A stretch of DNA of 53,137 nucleotides, taken from a virus (taxonomy: Duplodnaviria > Heunggongvirae > Uroviricota > Caudoviricetes). The stretch lies in the IMG/VR virus record IMGVR_UViG_2645727867_000003; one strand, given 5' to 3'. Numbering within the stretch: position 1 is the first letter of the stretch; each line of letters begins with the position of its first letter. Shown in pieces: positions 29,663 to 43,329 of this stretch. Position numbers and translations under genes: made by a program. Below the pieces are notes generated by a model, which ran no database searches, was not told where the DNA came from, and saw nothing but the letters and a program-made list of their open reading frames with translations.

Positions 29663-31627
29663 TCATGCCGCAGTGTCTGTGCTGTTCACTTCCACCGCAA
29701 TGCTGTCAATCAGCAGCGTATACGTCGCCGATTTTGATATATCGGTCAGTTGCAGTTTGTCCGCCACCCCCGATGCCGGTGACTTCACCAGTGTGAACGC
29801 CGCTCCCCGTTTCTCATCCAGTACTGGTGTCACCTGAATGCTGTTGTTTCCGGCAAACTCAAAAGCCAGCGTGTGCCATCCGTTATCAAAGACCCCGAAT
29901 GTATCCAGCTTCGCATTCGGCTTCCTGTGATGCATCGCGTTCAGGTTCGTCGTATCCGTCTGCAGAAAGAAGGACATCAGCATATCGTTACCTTCTCCTG
30001 ACAGCGTCACCCCCTCCGGCAGGGACGACAACTGCCAGTAAATGCCCAGGGCAAACTGATTCGGCACCAGTGAACCCGGCAACTTAAACCGTACGCTCAC
30101 ACGTCCGCCCTTCTTCAGTAACTCCGCCCCCTGTCCGGCTGCATCATGCTCCAGAAACCAGATGTGGTTTTCCGGTTTGTTCAGTTGCAGAGCCTTACCT
30201 CCCGTAGCCCCCGCATCACTGACCACCGCTTCAGCAATGTTTTTGTTAACACTGTCTCCGCCCGCCGGTTTGTGATAATAGCGCCAGCCCTGTGATGCCA
30301 GGTCTTCGCCGGATGCCAGCAGACTCATCAGGGTACGCTTACTGGCCGGGGCTTCCGCCTCTCTCTCCGGACCTTCACCGGAAGGTACGGTGGGCCTCAC
30401 CATATCAGGCTGTTTTCCGGTAATGAATTCAGCGGTTCTCCCGGCGTGCACCAGAATCGCCGTTGCCAGACGGTCGGAAATAATCCCCCGGCGTGCCCAG
30501 GTGCTGAAATGGCTCGCCCTGTCCTGTGACGTCCAGGTGGCTGAGCTGTCACGCCATTTCGAACCGTAATACCCGATACCCGGAATGTCCGGGTCTTCTT
30601 CCGGTTTGTTCGTCGGCACATTCACCCCGTTCTCATCCGTCATGAACGGTACGAAATGGATATTCTTTTCCGTTTTGTTTTTATAGCTGCCGTACACCGT
30701 CTGGTACGTGGATTCGTTCTTCTGCTTCCAGAAATACGTCGTATCTCCACATATCCAGGGAACACCGCCAGCAGAGCCACCAACGCACTGACCTGCCATA
30801 TCCGTCAGGTCTGCACGGAATTTATCAACCAGCGCACCAAACTGTGCTGCGTGATTTACCGGCGTACCGCCAAAATCAAATTCCCCCTGCATCCACACCA
30901 CGGCAAACAGCACATTTTTCGGGTTCTTCTTCAGTGCTGCTTTTGTTCGACCGATAAGGTCCTTGTACAGCGGCTTGTCCACACCCCAGCGGGTTGAATT
31001 CTCCGAGGCACCACTCGCGTCACTGTATGTGCCATCAGCTCCGGTGGTGAACGCTGAACCACCACGACAGCACGGAGCCAGCAGAATGCCCGCATTCGCC
31101 GGTATAAACGGCAGCAATTTTTTGGCAATATGCAGCCCCTGCCCCACGGTTCCGTACTGCCCCTTTGACAGGTCCGCTTTCGGATGGTTAAGGCGGCTCA
31201 TGTCCTGCACATCATGCAGACAATGGTCCGCCGGAATGATGTCGTTATATTTGCATGCTGCACCGCCCGGTGTCACCGTACTGCGGCGCGCCAGCTGCTT
31301 AATGCGCGGCTCCGGACGGTCATATGTCTCCGGCAGCGGAAGACCTTCACCATACGACATGCCATTTGACTGCCCTGCCAGAACCACAACAAAGTAATAC
31401 TCCGGGTCGCTGGTGGCACTGACAGCCACCGCCTTACCCTCATTACCGGTCACCGCCACTGGTGTGGTGACATCACCTTCCGCCGCAATGGCCTGCATCA
31501 GGGTATAAGGCGTGATGGCCACCGGACTGCCAAATGGCTGCCAGCCCTCCTTCAGTTTTTGTGTCAGTCGTTCAGCAAGGTCTGACGGCGATGCCGCCCT
31601 GACCACATCGTAGTGTTTAAATGCCAT
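29663..31627 (-). CDS. nanS: prophage-type sialate O-acetylesterase (NanS-p family, SGNH hydrolase) with C-terminal extension
   Basis: Block YYFVVVLAGQSNGMSYGEGLPLP…RIKQLAR…YGTVGQGLHIAKKLLPFIP…CCRGGSAFT…WMQGEFD matches the E. coli NanS/YjhS family as recalled from memory. Confidence 0.85.
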   Translation of the reverse strand: MAFKHYDVVRAASPSDLAERLTQKLKEGWQPFGSPVAITPYTLMQAIAAEGDVTTPVAVTGNEGKAVAVSATSDPEYYFVVVLAGQSNGMSYGEGLPLPETYDRPEPRIKQLARRSTVTPGGAACKYNDIIPADHCLHDVQDMSRLNHPKADLSKGQYGTVGQGLHIAKKLLPFIPANAGILLAPCCRGGSAFTTGADGTYSDASGASENSTRWGVDKPLYKDLIGRTKAALKKNPKNVLFAVVWMQGEFDFGGTPVNHAAQFGALVDKFRADLTDMAGQCVGGSAGGVPWICGDTTYFWKQKNESTYQTVYGSYKNKTEKNIHFVPFMTDENGVNVPTNKPEEDPDIPGIGYYGSKWRDSSATWTSQDRASHFSTWARRGIISDRLATAILVHAGRTAEFITGKQPDMVRPTVPSGEGPEREAEAPASKRTLMSLLASGEDLASQGWRYYHKPAGGDSVNKNIAEAVVSDAGATGGKALQLNKPENHIWFLEHDAAGQGAELLKKGGRVSVRFKLPGSLVPNQFALGIYWQLSSLPEGVTLSGEGNDMLMSFFLQTDTTNLNAMHHRKPNAKLDTFGVFDNGWHTLAFEFAGNNSIQVTPVLDEKRGAAFTLVKSPASGVADKLQLTDISKSATYTLLIDSIAVEVNSTDTAA

Positions 31628-31739
31628 GAATCCTCCCGGCCGGGATAATGTTCTGAGTCAGAGAAGGCACGGGCTGACCTCCGGAAACACAAAAGTCACA
31701 CAGAAAAACAGCCCGCAAAAAAGAAATACGCCCTTACAG

Positions 31740-31769
31740 TTGCGCAAGGTGATTACTCTAAGGTATTAT
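31740..31769 (+). promoter_or_regulatory. sigma70-like promoter (TTGCGC-18 nt-TATTAT)
   Basis: Both hexamers and the spacing are conserved in the paralogous copy at 34487-34516. Confidence 0.45.
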
Positions 31770-31776
31770 TAGGGTG

Positions 31777-31853
31777 CTGAATAAATTACTTCACGTTTTG
31801 TTATTTATTCCTTGCTTCCTTGCCAACCGCTCTTCCCAGGAGCGGTTTTTTTT
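31777..31853 (+). ncRNA. candidate ~77-nt sRNA (promoter to intrinsic terminator), paralog A
   Basis: No ORF. Conserved core ATTACTTCACGTTTTGTTATTTATTCCTTGC, then hairpin CCGCT-N9-AGCGG and T8. Confidence 0.4.
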
Positions 31854-31859
31854 ACATGT

Positions 31860-31885
31860 AAAAAGGCTCCTGCGATGAGGAGCCT
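31860..31885 (-). terminator. minus-strand intrinsic terminator convergent with the sRNA-A terminator
   Basis: Hairpin GGCTCCT-N6-AGGAGCC followed by T5 on the minus strand. Confidence 0.5.
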
Positions 31886-31899
31886 GGATGTATGCCTAA

Positions 31900-32900
31900 T
31901 CTCTGTATACTGCATGGTGCCGGGTGCCTCCCGGTGAACAAATGTCCGTGATATCAGTCGGCCACACAGGAAATGATACGATATCACCCCTCCGCACAGG
32001 GGGATTCACCATGCCCGTTTTTTTTAACAAACTCCTCATCAATCAGACAATCATCAACCTCATGAATTGTGAGGAATTTAACATTTCACAACACAGCCTT
32101 TTCCCTGCATAAAAAAGCCCCTCCGGAGAGGGGCTTCGCTACGTGTCTGTTAACCATATGCATGATGCCGGGTGCCTCCCGGTGAGTTCAGTATCAGCAC
32201 CTGAACCCGCACAGAAAGGATAGAGTAGAAACACCTGCGCTGATATGCCCCTCCGCTCAGGGGGATTCACCATGCAGAACTTTTTTAACAACTCCCCGTA
32301 AGACAGGCAAGCATCAACCATCTGAACTGTGAGGAATTTAACATTTCACAACACAGCGTTTTTCCTGCATAAAAAAGCCCCTCAGGAGAGGGGCTGACAC
32401 TGCGTATCTGTATCATCATGAACATGGTGCCGGGTGCCTCCCGGTGAGTCCAGTCTGGTGTCCCTGAACCCGCGTTTGCATTGCCTACAACAGAAAAGAT
32501 GCAAATCACACCAGTCGCCCCTCCGCACAGGGGGATTCACCATGCAGAACTTTTTTAACAACTCCCCCTCAGACAGGCAAGCATCAACCACCTGAACTGT
32601 GAGGAATTTAACACTTAACAACACAGCCTTTTCCCGCACAAAAAAAGCCCCTCCGGAGAGGGGCCGATCGCTATGTATACACCATAAGCAGCATAGTGCC
32701 GGGTGCCTCCCGGTAGATTCAGCCTGACTACTGAATCTGCGTATTGTGACCATCGCTATGGAGACCATGTCAGACGCCCCTCCGCACAGGGGGATTCACT
32801 ATGCTGGCTCGTTTTTACAAGACTTCCATCGATCAGACAATAGCCCATCAACCGAATTGTGAGTCATTTAACATTTCCATGAGGTAACTGATATCCAGCT
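31900..32900 (-). repeat. tandem array of four ~260-bp structured repeat units (candidate minus-strand sRNA genes), each with a hypervariable internal hairpin
   Basis: Each unit has conserved blocks GTGCCGGGTGCCTCCCGGTGA, CCCCTCCGCACAGGGGGATTCACCATGC, GAATTGTGAGGAATTTAACATTTCACAACACAG and a minus-strand terminator GCCCCTC-CGGA-GAGGGGC plus T6 (32111-32134, 32371-32394, 32641-32664). A 50-70-nt unit-specific segment lies between the first two blocks. Confidence 0.6.
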
Positions 32901-33122
32901 AACAATCATCTACAATGGACGAAGCCAGTTCCAGAACTTGCCCACGGTACAGCAACAACCACTGCATACACATAATTACCACCGGACTCTCTGAACCTGC
33001 CTCCTGGCTAACCCCAGATACAACACCACCAGTCACAAAAGCATCTTATTCTGAAGTACAACTGCCGTGCGGCAGATACTAAAAGCGCCTGTATGTAACA
33101 ACATAAATATACAGGATATGTT

Positions 33123-33401
33123 TTATCCACGGGATATAATTTTGATTTCATCAAAACCGTTACTACCTGCAATTCTGTTGTACTCCTGAACAAGACTCAG
33201 TAACTCCGAATTAGCCGCGGTGAACTCCTCACAGACGTTCCGAAGTGCATCTACATCCAGAAGAACCATCTCCTGACCTGAACGTCGATCAGGGGTACAA
33301 AATAAAACTGTCAGACGACTGAAGACCTTTGTTCGTTCCACATTGACGGCTTCAATACGCTGTAACAGTTGGCTACATCTGATTTTCTCATCAATATTCA
33401 C
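33123..33401 (-). CDS. hypothetical protein (92 aa) downstream of the AraC-family regulator
   Basis: GTG-start ORF in an AT-rich segment. Weak SD. Confidence 0.3.
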   Translation of the reverse strand: MNIDEKIRCSQLLQRIEAVNVERTKVFSRLTVLFCTPDRRSGQEMVLLDVDALRNVCEEFTAANSELLSLVQEYNRIAGSNGFDEIKIISRG

Positions 33402-33489
33402 GCAAACACCAAATGATTATAACTTTTTATGCTGAACACATTCAGACTATATCTAATACAGTCAATCAATATATGCCTGATGAAAAACA

Positions 33490-34215
33490 TCAGATAACGT
33501 CTGCTTTCTGCAAATATGCATAGCTCTCAGGTGGTGCACCATAATACTGGTGAAATACAGAAATGAAGTAGGACTTACTTGAGTAACCACATTTTTCCGC
33601 TATCGCTTGTCCACACTCTCGCTGGAAACATACAAGATTAACAGCAACACGCATTCGCTCCTCCAGCAACAACCGACTAAAGCTATAACCTTCATCCTTA
33701 AGTTTTCGCTTCAACAAGCTTTCGCTCATATGCAATTGTAATGCAATCACACCAAGCATCCAGCCTGCCGATATGTCGGTCTGAATTATAGCCCTTACTT
33801 TACAGCTGATATTATTTACAGCACCGGACAAAAATAATGGCAGACGTCTGTCTGTTGCAAATAAGGAGATACATGAAAATGCGGTTATAACAGAGAAATC
33901 CTTCAAAGTATCACTGGATTCACTATGCTGGGTTATTAAAGCCTCCGCCAGTTCCGTATTGTAAATATCAGACATCAAATAAAGAGGAATTTTTGTCGGT
34001 GTATACTCCGTCAGTTCACACTCCCTTTCCAGATACTGATTGACGACGCTGTTACTTATATCTGCCATTTTCACTCTGTCGGCATAAGCACAGAAAAGCC
34101 CTCTTATATTTCTGGCAACAAGCATAACACTTCCGGCATCGAGTGAAACTTTTTCTTTTTCAAGAAAAATATCTATCGGATAGCGAATCAGGACCACAGA
34201 GCAGGCAACATCCAT
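33490..34215 (-). CDS. AraC/XylS-family transcriptional regulator (GadX-like C-terminal HTH)
   Basis: C-terminal …LLKRKLKDEGYSFSRLLLEERMRVAVNL…CGYSSKSYFISVFHQYYGAPP… is an AraC-type double HTH. AT-rich codon usage. Confidence 0.8.
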   Translation of the reverse strand: MDVACSVVLIRYPIDIFLEKEKVSLDAGSVMLVARNIRGLFCAYADRVKMADISNSVVNQYLERECELTEYTPTKIPLYLMSDIYNTELAEALITQHSESSDTLKDFSVITAFSCISLFATDRRLPLFLSGAVNNISCKVRAIIQTDISAGWMLGVIALQLHMSESLLKRKLKDEGYSFSRLLLEERMRVAVNLVCFQRECGQAIAEKCGYSSKSYFISVFHQYYGAPPESYAYLQKADVI

Positions 34216-34282
34216 TTTGAATTAACCTTAGCAAAAAGACTTAATACCAGTATATTCCAAAAATGGCATTTTGGGAGATTAC

Positions 34283-34455
34283 TTCTGCAAACCGCTCCCG
34301 CTAAATACATCCCTGATTTCCTGCGCAGTCTGTTCAAAACGCCCGGTATCCAGCTCAACGCCAGTTGCACGACGCCCCAGCGCCATCGCTGCTTTAACTG
34401 CCGAACCCTACCCCATGAAGAAATCTGCAACCAGGACACCCAGCAGAAGGGAGAC
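34283..34455 (-). pseudogene. remnant 3' fragment of a DNA methyltransferase gene (paralogous to 35819-35990)
   Basis: Nucleotide alignment to the 3' end of the intact methylase gene. Translation …ADFFMG*GSAVKAAMALGRRATGVELDTGRFEQ… carries an in-frame TAG. Confidence 0.55.
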
Positions 34456-34486
34456 TACAGCCCGCAATTCGAAAAAGGCCACGCTA

Positions 34487-34516
34487 TTGCGCAGAGTGAT
34501 TACTGTCGGGTATTAT
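34487..34516 (+). promoter_or_regulatory. sigma70-like promoter (TTGCGC-18 nt-TATTAT), paralog of 31740-31769
   Basis: Identical hexamers and spacing. Confidence 0.45.
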
Positions 34517-34523
34517 TCGCCAG

Positions 34524-34591
34524 TTGAAGTATTACTTCACGTTTTATTGTTTATTCCTTGCCGCCCGCGTCTCCCAGCGCGGGCTTTTTTT
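34524..34591 (+). ncRNA. candidate ~70-nt sRNA, paralog B
   Basis: Same conserved core as paralog A. The terminator stem is changed in a compensatory way (GCCCGCG-N8-CGCGGGC plus T7). Confidence 0.4.
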
Positions 34592-34599
34592 GTCCATAA

Positions 34600-34860
34600 G
34601 AAAGCCCCTCCGGAGAGGGGCTGAAGCCGCATTTCTGTATCACCATGAGCATGGTGCCGGGTGCCTCCCGGTGAGTTCAGCCCGGTGACACCAAACCCGC
34701 GTATTCTCGCTTACGATCATCAAAGAGATCATACCGTTCACCAGTCGCCCCTCCGCACAGGGGGATTCACCATGCGAAATTTTTTTAACAAATGCTCAGT
34801 CTGACAGGCAACTGTCAACTTACTGAATTGTGAGGGATTTAACACTTCACAGCACAATAT
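34600..34860 (-). repeat. solitary fifth copy of the ~260-bp structured repeat unit
   Basis: Contains all four conserved blocks plus its own variable segment. Minus-strand terminator at 34605-34628. Confidence 0.55.
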
Positions 34861-34910
34861 CTTTCCAGCGCCCCAAAATCATCAGGACAGGAGAAAATCT
34901 TCTCCCCCTG

Positions 34911-35339
34911 TCAGAGTTTAAAATCCAGCACGCCATTTCTAAATGCTTTATATACTCCTGAAGACGGTGGTGATGGTATATCAGCATTCTTTACTGCATT
35001 CATCGCTTCACGACATAAATCGGGATCACCGCTTTCTCTTTTAACCTGTAGCAGAAGACCATTCGGGGCCATATACATTCTCAGTGAACACTCTTTTCCT
35101 GAATACTTACTCGCATCCTTTAACTGTTCTTCTATGGCTTTCCTGACCTGAATGGCATACTGCCGGATTTCTTCACTGGCATCAGGGGTACGTTCCGATG
35201 AGCTCAAATTTTGTGACTTTATTAATTTATCTGAGTGATACAGAGAAGCATCATAATTATTTGTCGATACATCTTTTGTGCAGCCAGTTGTCAGACTGGC
35301 TAATATCAAAACAAGAACCGGTACAGCACGGCAATACAT
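34911..35339 (-). CDS. lipoprotein with TolA C-terminal (domain III)-like region
   Basis: Signal peptide/lipobox-like LTTGC. C-terminal …YSGKECSLRMYMAPNGLLLQVKRESGDPDLCREAMNAVKNADIPSPPSSGVYKAFRNGVLDFKL is collinear with TolA domain III as recalled from memory (…YAGKTCTLRIKLAPDGMLLDIKPEGGDPALCQAAL…FKNAPLDFKP). SD GGAG. Confidence 0.7.
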   Translation of the reverse strand: MYCRAVPVLVLILASLTTGCTKDVSTNNYDASLYHSDKLIKSQNLSSSERTPDASEEIRQYAIQVRKAIEEQLKDASKYSGKECSLRMYMAPNGLLLQVKRESGDPDLCREAMNAVKNADIPSPPSSGVYKAFRNGVLDFKL

Positions 35340-42009: not shown

Positions 42010-42165
42010 TTACTCCTCAGGTTCGTAAGCTGTGAAGACAGCGACCTCCGTCTGGCCGGTTCGGATTCGTACCTCGCAGAGGTCTTTCCTCGTTACCAGT
42101 GCCGTCATTATGACGGTTAAACAGATGACAATCAGGGCGATTAACATCGCCTTTTGCTGCTTCAT
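42010..42165 (-). CDS. hokD: Hok/Gef-family type I toxin (HokD/RelF-like)
   Basis: MKQQKAMLIALIVICLTVIMTALVTRKDLCEVRIRTGQTEVAVFTAYEPEE. SD AGGAG upstream. Confidence 0.8.
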   Translation of the reverse strand: MKQQKAMLIALIVICLTVIMTALVTRKDLCEVRIRTGQTEVAVFTAYEPEE

Positions 42166-42436
42166 AGCCTGCTTCTCCTTGCCTTTCGGCACGTAAGAGG
42201 CTAACCTACATGTGCAAAGCATGAAATTGGCCTCAGATTAATGTTAAGCGTCCTGCAAGACGCGTAATGTTAACTGGGGCTTTTCTCTGTCTGCCTTACG
42301 GCGGCATGCCCGAGGCAGACAGCCTCAAGCACCCGCAGCAATTCTACTTAACTCTTCTTTCCCCGCAAATCATTTTATCCCCGATGGTAATGTTCTCCCG
42401 ATATGGGAATTCCCATATCAAGGTTAACTCAATCGG

Positions 42437-42988: not shown

Positions 42989-43329
42989 GATAACGCCCTC
43001 TGGTTGATGAATTTAACTATCACCACCTTCAGGTCTCAATCATCAGGTGGCGAGACGTACAGGGTTGAGACTACCGGATCAACCAACCGGCCAGCCTTTC
43101 GGCTGCCCCATACGCCTCACCATAATTCAGATGTGCGTGCGCATACGACAATAAAAAACACGCTCGCGGCGTGTGTCTGTCGCGGTTGAATATCCGGGGT
43201 CTCAATCCCGACGGTCAACTCGACCGTGCGGTGAATATAGCCCCGGATTAGTAATTACGTCAACCCCAGCGGCAAATCGAATAAACCACCAGCGCTACCG
43301 CCATTGCAACTCCTGCCGTTACGAATGCC

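Follow-up and report, generated by a model that had tools for sequence, protein, structure and literature searches.

STnc100 is a curated RNA family that was first seen in Salmonella and that also comprises the small RNAs (sRNAs) EcOnc27/sRNA103 and EcOnc04/05/06 of enterohemorrhagic Escherichia coli (EHEC); PasD1 and PasD2 of enteropathogenic E. coli (EPEC) are related to it, and experiments have detected all of these RNAs as Hfq-associated. EcOnc04/05/06/27 gave peaks in crosslinking and analysis of cDNA with Hfq (Hfq-CRAC) and Northern sizes of ~177–247 nt (PMC4104026); EcOnc27, which is named sRNA103 in strain EDL933, is Hfq-crosslinked and was sized at ~235/247 nt (PMC4104026). EDL933 carries eleven STnc100 copies, all of them transcribed and one Northern-confirmed (PMC5331693). 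PasD1 and PasD2 (173 and 172 nt, respectively) are Hfq-dependent and have many partners in ligation and sequencing of interacting RNAs (RIL-seq; Pearl Mizrahi 2021, PMC8550237), and the link between PasD and STnc100 has also been drawn in a 2026 preprint by Zhu, Shabalina, and Storz. Here we analyze the virus record IMGVR_UViG_2645727867_000003 from IMG/VR (53,137 nt, the whole of which is referred to as the window), where five minus-strand units matching this family, four of them in direct tandem, lie in the late cargo region of a lambdoid E. coli prophage, together with two sRNA-like units on the plus strand.

In eight Sakai prophages, Tree et al. (2014, PMC4104026) reported convergent sRNA pairs, or dyads, located downstream of PR'. 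EcOnc08/21/42, the type to which the plus-strand units in the window are homologous, shows a 73-nt Hfq peak over its 3' part. An EPEC sRNA, E2348C_1409.E2348C_1408.IGR, with an estimated length of 182 nt, has been named outright as the equivalent of EcOnc08/21/42; 767 chimeras join it to the 5' untranslated region (5'UTR) of cfa, and its target motif, GGCAGGG/GGCAAGG, is complementary to CCUUGCC.

The original prediction, which was made from the letters of the window, described a composite RNA locus at positions 31740–32900 and could match it to no named RNA. Names do exist for both parts: the minus-strand units correspond to Rfam RF02076 (STnc100), the plus-strand unit is of the EcOnc08/21/42 type, and the dyad arrangement was published in 2014. 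The family and the dyad are already known, and the locus is real but mostly known; what we add is modest, namely the four-fold tandem arrangement, the shuffling of modules between loci, and an extra covarying helix. We think it probable that the locus is a cluster of independent Hfq-associated sRNA genes in the late cargo site, consisting of five STnc100 siblings and two partners.

Identity of the minus-strand units and their convergent partners

Direct-repeat families tile positions 31904–32877 with start-to-start spacings of 260, 270, and 260 bp, an array that Tandem Repeats Finder did not detect because the copies are too diverged. The Rfam covariance model RF02076 (206 positions; gathering score 47 bits) resolves four units, U1–U4, at 31854–32833 with a spacing of 260–270 bp, which bears out the predicted tandem of ~260-bp minus-strand units. 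All five units in the window span model positions 1–206 and score above the gathering threshold, at 119.5–172.4 bits (Table 1). Full-length matches of every unit to a single covariance model (E-values from 1e-25 to 1e-31 for U1–U4) exclude chance, and no other Rfam family or clan matches the units. Judged by these matches, the five units are new members of the STnc100 family. The predicted interval does hold the four-unit array, but the fifth unit and a second plus-strand unit fall outside it, at 34487–34804.

The units share with STnc100/EcOnc27 the same helices, the terminator style, and the prophage site between Q/cargo and the esterase and lysis genes. Unlike in EDL933, where the copies are dispersed and the closest pair is ~28 kb apart, four stand here in direct tandem with a fifth nearby, and their internal segments and linkers form combinations that are new compared with STnc100/EcOnc. 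The probes for EcOnc05 and EcOnc06 (RNAs of ~222 and ~177 nt) fall within the internal region of STnc100-type units. PasD1/PasD2 resemble the units in architecture, in their position upstream of a sialate esterase, in having their estimated 5' end at the G of GCAUGGUG, and in length (~172 nt), but they form a divergent branch with a degenerate form of the hairpin termed P5 below. PasD2, which has the same architecture and lies directly upstream of the esterase, scores 41.4 bits against RF02076, below the threshold. A further difference is that the preprint has the PasD copies as distal ones acquired by superinfection, not as tandem duplicates.

On the plus strand, the unit at 31740 and the second unit at 34487 are both homologous to EcOnc08/21/42 and to the EPEC intergenic sRNA, with which they have the CCUUGCC seed and the terminator in common; a profile of this type gave 26 homologous matches in 24 loci with nhmmer. 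By sequence, the composite of both strands is the convergent sRNA dyad of Tree et al., which is present twice in the window, with the STnc100 side multiplied four-fold at one of the two. The terminators converge in both cases (plus 31825–47 versus minus 31885–64, and plus 34563–84 versus minus 34622–03). As in the AsxR–EcOnc27 and AgvB–EcOnc06 dyads, the genes are convergent with terminators a few nucleotides apart, downstream of Q/PR' and upstream of lysis; unlike in those dyads, the partner is of the EcOnc08/21/42 type rather than an AsxR/AgvB anti-sRNA, and the STnc100 side is four-fold. The layout of Sakai prophage Sp5 (stx2B, STnc100, convergent AsxR) is the same as here, a Sakai STnc100 copy that overlaps EcOnc27 lying 75 nt downstream of stx2B (207.7 bits), and in Sakai Sp4 a single STnc100 unit (138 bits) converges on an EcOnc08-type unit.

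The promoter (TTGCGC, 18-nt spacer, TATTAT) and the intrinsic terminator that had been proposed for the first plus-strand unit are both as described, whereas the proposed RNA length of ~77 nt is doubtful. The homologues are sized at 182 nt (EPEC) and ~271 nt (Sakai), and the Northern probe of Tree et al. (2014), which maps to 34483–34517 with one mismatch, overlies the supposed promoter; for these reasons the true 5' end may lie upstream, near 31656–31672 or further, a plus-strand promoter-like site at 31621–31649 being one candidate start. With 112 versus 138 bits, the copy at 31740 is a variant, and it carries an exact 8-nt tandem duplication in the seed region (TTCCTTGC twice, at 31808–31823), which doubles the CCUUGCC element that is single in the 34487 copy and in Sakai Sp4, and its terminator stem differs from that of the 34487 copy by compensatory changes (CCGCTC/GAGCGG versus GCCCGCG/CGCGGGC).

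AsxR, AgvB, and Esr41 were rejected as identities of the plus-strand unit, there being no Rfam match to them in 31600–35000 even at E ≤ 1. AsxR and AgvB (RF02703/RF02702) have a conserved 3' region of ~42 nt (GUAUCUCAUGC..UUGCCCGAACCCAYUCGGGC) behind a short, variable 5' end, and this region was not found at 31600–35000; Sakai Sp5, by contrast, gives an AsxR/AgvB-type Rfam match of 88.1 bits. The position and the TTGCGC–18-nt promoter architecture are the only features shared with AsxR of Sp5.

A terminator-like hairpin on the minus strand (31732–31749 and 34479–34494, the latter with the clearer T-tail) overlaps the −35 element (TTGCGC) of each plus-strand unit, and the same feature is found in Sakai Sp5 and Sp4. 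It lies just ahead of the esterase 5'UTR and, in the second dyad, ahead of a methyltransferase fragment. Read-through STnc100 transcripts ending at these hairpins would be entirely antisense to the partner sRNA.

Predicted transcription units and a covarying long-range helix

The idea of a conserved scaffold with variable modules holds quantitatively. Among U1–U4, the mean pairwise identity is 0.96 in the 5' block (first 28 nt), 0.88 in the invariant hairpin block, and 0.84 in the terminator, against 0.56 in the internal 51–72-nt segment, which is the level of shuffled sequences (0.55 ± 0.03). The 3' linker of 23–26 nt that precedes the terminator is, with an identity of 0.62, a second variable stretch, one that the original prediction had not singled out.

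The 80 nt upstream of the start are conserved as well (mean identity 0.79 among U1–U4). When 206 distinct family members were scanned with relaxed promoter criteria, anchored on the first conserved helix (P1), the promoter-like score just upstream of P1 averaged 6.83, compared with 4.2–5.8 at control offsets, and 35 strong promoter-like sites were found there versus 0–3 at the controls. The typical hexamers are TTGACA/TTGACC-17/18-TAAATT in other subfamilies and TTGCCT/TTGTCT-17/18-TGT-TAAAAA in this array. The start predicted from the promoter is the G of GCAUGGUG, which coincides exactly with the 5' end of PasD2, as estimated from RNA-seq read coverage (E. coli E2348/69, NC_011601 741157; locus L247). 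Because of this agreement, roughly the first 28 positions of the RF02076 model are probably promoter DNA, that is, spacer and −10 element, and not RNA.

The conserved inter-unit element contains, in addition to the proximal promoter, a TGTGA-N13-TCACA inverted repeat and a possible distal extended −10 (TGT-TAAATT). The inverted repeat lies ~53–75 nt upstream of each predicted STnc100 start, on the minus strand. Its spacing does not fit a CRP site, which requires N6, and it could be the site of another regulator or a second promoter; transcription from the distal extended −10 would give RNAs of ~220–235 nt, possibly resembling some of the Sakai bands.

The strong terminator that had been ascribed to every unit (GCCCCTC..GAGGGGC plus a T-run) is present in U2, U3, and U4, with the loop TCCG or TCCT, but U1 has another stem, GGCTCCTC-ATCGC-AGGAGCC, followed by T5. 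Promoter, ~155–175-nt RNA, and terminator taken together, each ~260-bp repeat looks like a transcription unit of its own. The minimum free energy (MFE) folds of U1–U4 have one architecture, in which closing stem P1 and hairpin P2 are followed by a hairpin specific to the unit, then by P4 and P5, and finally by linker and terminator. P5 is the invariant hairpin CCGGG-AGGCA-CCCGG. The helices of the RF02076 consensus (closing stem, 5' hairpin, pre-core hairpin, CCGGG/CCCGG hairpin, and terminator) are present according to both cmscan and the MFE folds of U1–U4, and the folding z-scores are −2.67, −3.83, −2.39, −3.47, and −2.18 for U1 to U5. U1 is without the standard P4 hairpin; its MFE fold (P1, P2, nested A/A', P5) has instead a nested stem formed by the segments A and A' described below, together with a short hairpin.

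Covariation was assessed in units that have the exact 18-nt core; they came from IMG/VR contigs and from genomes, one for each species, and were clustered into 78 groups at 92% identity. The gappy variable parts of the 78-sequence MAFFT alignment limited RNAalifold to the recovery of P1, P2, and P5. In P1, the column pair 117/287 is GC in 42 and AU in 29 sequences, and another pair is UA in 29 and CG in 23; in P2, CG changes to GC or UA in 12–15 sequences. U4 itself shows a compensatory change in P1 (AUAGUG/CACUAU), which at the same time removes an ATG. P5 and several junction nucleotides are near-invariant across the family.

In view of this limited recovery, P4 and a long-range helix, A/A', were tested by comparing the complementarity of each unit's own segments with that of permuted ones. 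For P4, the mean helix length is 6.86 versus 4.46 (z = 18; 53 distinct stems). Segment A, ~7 nt in length and located 2–4 nt after P2, is paired with the P4 loop in almost all members, with many different sequences, for example CUGGUG/CACCAG, AUCAGC/GCUGAU, AAGGUUG/CAACCUU, and AGACUGACAA/UUGUCAGUCU; in U2 and U3 the pairs are UAUCAGCGC/GUGCUGAUA and CUGGUGU/ACACCAG. The mean for own segments is 6.65 versus 4.68 for permuted ones (z = 15; 61 distinct A segments), and none of 5000 permutations reaches the observed value. These controls ignore phylogeny; inheritance alone is nevertheless an unlikely explanation, because there are many independent complementary pairs. The helix is absent from the RF02076 consensus structure and forms a pseudoknot in most units, while it is nested in U1-type units. 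The proposal that each variable segment carries its own inverted repeat is correct for U3, where TTTGCAT...ATGCAAA is a true unit-specific hairpin, but in U1 the repeat GTGATATC...GATATCAC is the family-wide A/A' helix. The shared scaffold is clearly under structural selection, including a helix that is missing from the current model.

Table 1. Positions in the window of the RNA units, their predicted elements, and neighboring genes. Promoters, RNA ends, and seeds are predictions.
Feature	Position	Strand	Details
Plus-strand partner gene, EcOnc08/21/42 type	31740–31853	+	nhmmer 112.1 bits versus Sakai Sp4/window profile
Candidate promoter of 31740 copy	31740–31745; 31764–31769	+	TTGCGC; 18-nt spacer; TATTAT
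Putative seed of 31740 copy	31808–31823	+	UUCCUUGC, duplicated, then CC
Terminator of 31740 copy	31825–31847	+	stem; T-run to 31853
U1	31854–32043	−	RF02076, 141.3 bits
U1 RNA, ~155 nt	31860–32014	−	internal module 31936–31986; linker 31884–31909; terminator 31860–31883
U1 candidate promoter	32045–32050; 32021–32026	−	−35 TTGTCT; −10 TAAAAA; relaxed promoter scan
U2	32105–32303	−	RF02076, 141.7 bits
U2 RNA, ~165 nt	32111–32275	−	internal module 32184–32247; linker 32135–32157; terminator 32111–32134
U2 promoter	32305–32310; 32282–32287	−	−35 TTGCCT; TGT-TAAAAA; relaxed promoter scan
U3	32365–32574	−	RF02076, 140.8 bits
U3 RNA, ~175 nt	32371–32545	−	internal module 32446–32517; linker 32395–32419; terminator 32371–32394
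U3 promoter	32575–32580; 32552–32557	−	−35 TTGCCT; TGT-TAAAAA; relaxed promoter scan
U4	32638–32833	−	RF02076, 119.5 bits
U4 RNA, ~165 nt	32640–32804	−	internal module 32715–32776; linker 32665–32688; terminator 32640–32664
U4 promoter	32835–32840; 32812–32817	−	−35 TTGTCT; −10 TAAAAA; upstream conserved element reaches ~32885
U5, fifth STnc100-family gene	34592–34804	−	RF02076, 172.4 bits; 1.8 kb upstream of four-unit array, in the other gap
U5 RNA, ~178 nt	34598–34775	−	
Conserved inter-unit element	32044–32104; equivalents ~32304–32364, 32575–32637, 32834–32885	−	invariant alignment columns
TGTGA-N13-TCACA	~32065–32090, 32325–32350, 32595–32620, 32855–32880, 34840–34865	−	conserved inverted repeat
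Second EcOnc08/21/42-type unit	34487–34591	+	convergent with U5; nhmmer 137.6 bits
Elements of second unit	34487–34492; 34511–34516; 34563–34584	+	TTGCGC; TATTAT; terminator stem, T-run to 34591
Esterase, 654 aa	29663–31627	−	DUF1737, SASA, and DUF6645 domains; downstream of array
Unannotated ORF, 92 aa	33123–33401	−	cargo; without Pfam match
AraC-family regulator	33490–34215	−	HTH_18/HTH_AraC; cargo between dyads
TolA C-terminal domain protein, 142 aa	34911–35339	−	cargo

Re-assorting modules, distribution, and genomic context

The variable modules were compared across ~240 sampled loci. The entire U1 unit is identical to one in locus L117, and its linker is ~94% identical to that of EcOnc27-type units. 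Modules identical to those of U2 occur in four other loci, with the internal module and the linker shared in L075, L097, and L115 and the internal module only in L213; no tandem array was seen in the three IMG/VR loci that share them. The linkers of U1 and U3 and the internal module of U5 are each joined to different partners elsewhere, and the variable modules of U4 have no relatives among the sampled loci. Variable modules have thus been re-assorted among loci, and this fits a probable origin of the array in which single-copy loci of different prophages, co-resident or superinfecting, recombined between their conserved scaffolds.

The family is spread over prophage regions of Escherichia, Salmonella, Klebsiella, Enterobacter, Kosakonia, Pantoea, Erwinia, Rahnella, and others. 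Among species genomes, 103 of the 120 loci with the 18-nt core are true family matches, the rest being chance matches in GC-rich phyla. In the IMG/VR sample, the profile matches form 117 sites with one unit, 14 with two, 2 with three, and 3 with four, the present locus being one of these last; Rfam confirms multi-unit arrays in ten IMG/VR loci, for example, four units in L012. Profile matches alone suggest at least 15 multi-unit sites in species genomes, some counts possibly being inflated by split matches, and Superficieibacter electus has three units 253–267 bp apart by the same criterion. BLAST with a 206-nt inter-unit junction as the query against 5,426 E. coli genomes gave matched spans of 222–306 nt, which is what is expected for a single unit with its two conserved pieces joined in swapped order, and arrays are therefore indistinguishable from single units in this search. 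A literature search found no description of tandem STnc100/EcOnc arrays, which is not proof of their absence.

On distant phage contigs, STnc100 units adjoin isrI, a Salmonella Hfq-binding RNA family (L078, 5220–5316; L033, 8139–8235; L058, 8665–8763), which suggests that there are other recurrent sRNA neighborhoods around the STnc100 family.

Positions 31600–33000 are 100% identical to a prophage of E. coli 94-3024 and of O104:H21 strain CFSAN002236. At least 80% of this stretch is carried by 89 of 5,426 complete E. coli genomes, and 3,102 have some match. According to the Prokaryotic Genome Annotation Pipeline (PGAP) annotation of the identical record, supplemented with Pfam, the late genes are on the minus strand of the window in the order antiterminator Q, DNA methyltransferase, tRNA-Ile, tRNA-Arg, a protein with a TolA C-terminal domain, the gap with U5, the AraC-family regulator, the 1.26-kb gap with U4 to U1, a SASA/nanS-p-type esterase, DUF1378, DUF826, and holin. 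The locus thus occupies the cargo (moron) region between Q/tRNAs and nanS-p/lysis in which it had been placed by the original prediction. IpeX of prophage DLP12 lies in the same Q-to-lysis cargo region, and was discarded as a counterpart because the STnc100-family profile finds nothing in the DLP12 region of K-12.

No RNA gene is annotated in either gap, and no PGAP noncoding RNA covers any of the five STnc100 units (NZ_CP009106.2). The stretch was also correctly judged to lack a credible open reading frame (ORF): none of its ORFs, including the five that cross the units, matches Pfam, and it is an RNA-gene locus rather than degraded coding DNA. ARAGORN found only two tRNAs, at 35.6–35.8 kb, and a tRNA-like or tmRNA-like nature of the units was dismissed on the same grounds. 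In phage phiSTEC1589-Stx1c (3834–4267), a tandem pair of STnc100 units stands between stx1B and the esterase, and two "hypothetical protein" coding sequences are annotated over it. These records expose a gap in annotation, with such RNAs left unannotated by PGAP here and ORFs called over them in some phage records.

Rfam also recognizes other RNAs on the minus strand of the same prophage, namely the sok antitoxin RNA (117 bits), the C4 antisense RNA (69 bits), and isrK (51 bits, barely over the threshold); they are located at 42160–42334, 43043–43127, and 43153–43227, and C4 adjoins isrK.

Proposed function and competing explanations

The organization of the locus and the properties of its relatives are the basis for the following model. 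Each repeat would have a weak sigma-70 promoter (−35 TTGCCT/TTGTCT, 17–18-nt spacer, TGT-TAAAAA) with its start at the G of GCAUGGUG, and would give an RNA with a structured 5' domain (P1, P2, A/A', P4, and P5), a single-stranded linker of 23–26 nt, and an intrinsic terminator that ends in a U-tail. Going by the relatives, the lysogen would make these RNAs, and Hfq would bind the linker and terminator, with the RNA acting in trans by pairing through the linker. Differences among the five linkers and among the internal modules would give the copies different target sets. The plus-strand partner, whose EPEC homologue pairs with several mRNAs including cfa, would have CCUUGCC as its seed. For the copies in the window, expression, dependence on Hfq, seed position, and targets are all inferred from relatives, as is any mechanism more specific than that of an Hfq-associated sRNA.

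A seed in the linker is likely because the Hfq-CRAC signal of EcOnc27 lies over P5, linker, and terminator, and because UGUGAG of PasD, the only seed proposed in the family, which was derived from a short (6–8 nt) target motif, is located in the 3' linker just before the terminator. The original prediction had taken the units for a family of regulatory RNAs with the internal segment as the specificity module. The first part is consistent with the relatives of the products of both strands, which are Hfq-associated sRNAs with different interaction sets, but the second is not supported, as the sole proposed seed of a relative is in the linker rather than the internal segment.

Several observations weigh against this model. 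A simple sigma-70 consensus scan of the minus strand at 31500–35000 found no promoter, and the proposed −10 element, TAAAAA, is without the canonical final T. The Northern sizes of some Sakai homologues (~222–247 nt) exceed the 155–178 nt predicted from the proximal start, which makes a second, distal start or read-through likely. Placing the seed in the linker means extrapolating from PasD2, a divergent relative with a sub-threshold match; the PasD motif has weak MEME support (E ~6.5 and ~0.01), and the assignment to PasD1 or PasD2 is ambiguous. The effects of sRNA103 on espA were judged to be indirect, and no direct targets have been validated for STnc100/PasD members. Finally, so conserved and structured a 5' domain is unusual for a purely seed-driven sRNA, suggesting that the description is incomplete.

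The best of the competing explanations, which we nonetheless regard as improbable, is that the locus is a block of stacked strong intrinsic terminators, five of them on the late strand together with convergent ones, that shields the esterase and lysis genes in the lysogen, with the sRNAs as by-products. Transcription from cargo promoters (AraC-family gene, tRNAs) would be blocked, while Q-modified polymerase would read through. Indeed, 31500–35000 contains 14 terminator-like sites where 3.6 ± 2.0 would be expected, and 12 of the 14 lie on the late (minus) strand; the array is immediately upstream of the esterase–holin cassette, and the placement is the same downstream of stx2B and stx1B in Stx phages. 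Termination, however, needs no more than a hairpin and a T-run, which leaves a promoter for each unit, covarying P1, P2, P4, and A/A' and an invariant P5 across many genera, and the Hfq binding and RNA partners of the relatives unexplained. It is very probable that the terminators do shield the lysis cassette from cargo promoters as well, and since the two roles are compatible, insulation is more likely to be a bonus than to explain the locus entirely.

Slightly less probable still is a structured RNA that acts chiefly by means other than seed pairing: a pseudoknotted domain would bind a protein or ligand (as a decoy, sponge, scaffold, or processing signal), the internal variable module would tune specificity, and arrays would supply variants. 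The scaffold has been kept with compensatory changes across Enterobacterales genera from Escherichia to Rahnella, one hairpin and several junction nucleotides are near-invariant, and a direct mRNA target is known for no member, all of which would fit. Against this, no partner is known, the units match no other Rfam family or clan and look in no way tRNA-like to ARAGORN, and PasD, with its Hfq-dependent stability and its chimeras in RIL-seq, is in keeping with an ordinary sRNA. A related idea, to which we give only a small chance, is that the STnc100 5' domain is a distinct and widely conserved phage RNA fold, with a multi-helix junction locked by the pseudoknot-like A/A' helix and a job of its own, for example in binding some host or phage factor, diversified by prophages as cassettes that are sometimes stacked in tandem. 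In that case, the STnc100 family would go beyond ordinary sRNAs that act by seed pairing.

Non-functional repeat debris, from a degraded coding gene or a selfish repeat, could be suspected from the mechanical ORFs of 60–128 aa that cross the units and from the hypothetical proteins annotated over homologous units, but it is effectively refuted by the lack of Pfam matches in all five ORFs, a unit-start ATG that is not conserved (lost in U4 with a compensating change in P1, and GUG or GCA in other members), strong covariation in the stems, and transcription of the homologues.

The preferred reading, a cluster of independent Hfq-associated sRNA genes, also has counterparts outside the family. In OmrA/OmrB and PrrF1/PrrF2, likewise, paralogous sRNA genes lie side by side, each equipped with a promoter and a terminator of its own, and have a scaffold in common while differing in part, and LhrC1-4 of Listeria are tandem sibling sRNA genes as well. 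Unlike the units here, these siblings are chromosomal duplicates, and they have no sequence relationship to STnc100; the units are longer, phage-borne, and mosaic, with a large structured domain. Repeat RNAs of type III toxin–antitoxin systems (ToxI-like) consist of repeats of tens of nucleotides in one precursor, immediately upstream of the toxin endoribonuclease gene. An array of this kind was rejected: the units are ~260 bp long, each has its own terminator, and the neighbors are the AraC-family regulator and the esterase.

Prophages of Shiga toxin-producing E. coli (STEC) and EPEC load their late cargo site with Hfq-dependent sRNAs that rewire host regulation, AsxR and AgvB being the proven cases. 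In this setting, the present locus indicates that a single prophage can carry five versions of an STnc100-type gene, built from re-assorting modules. It also offers handles on the function of this abundant family of RNAs from virulence phages: probes specific to single units, a defined start site, candidate regions for the seed, and a pseudoknot that can be tested.

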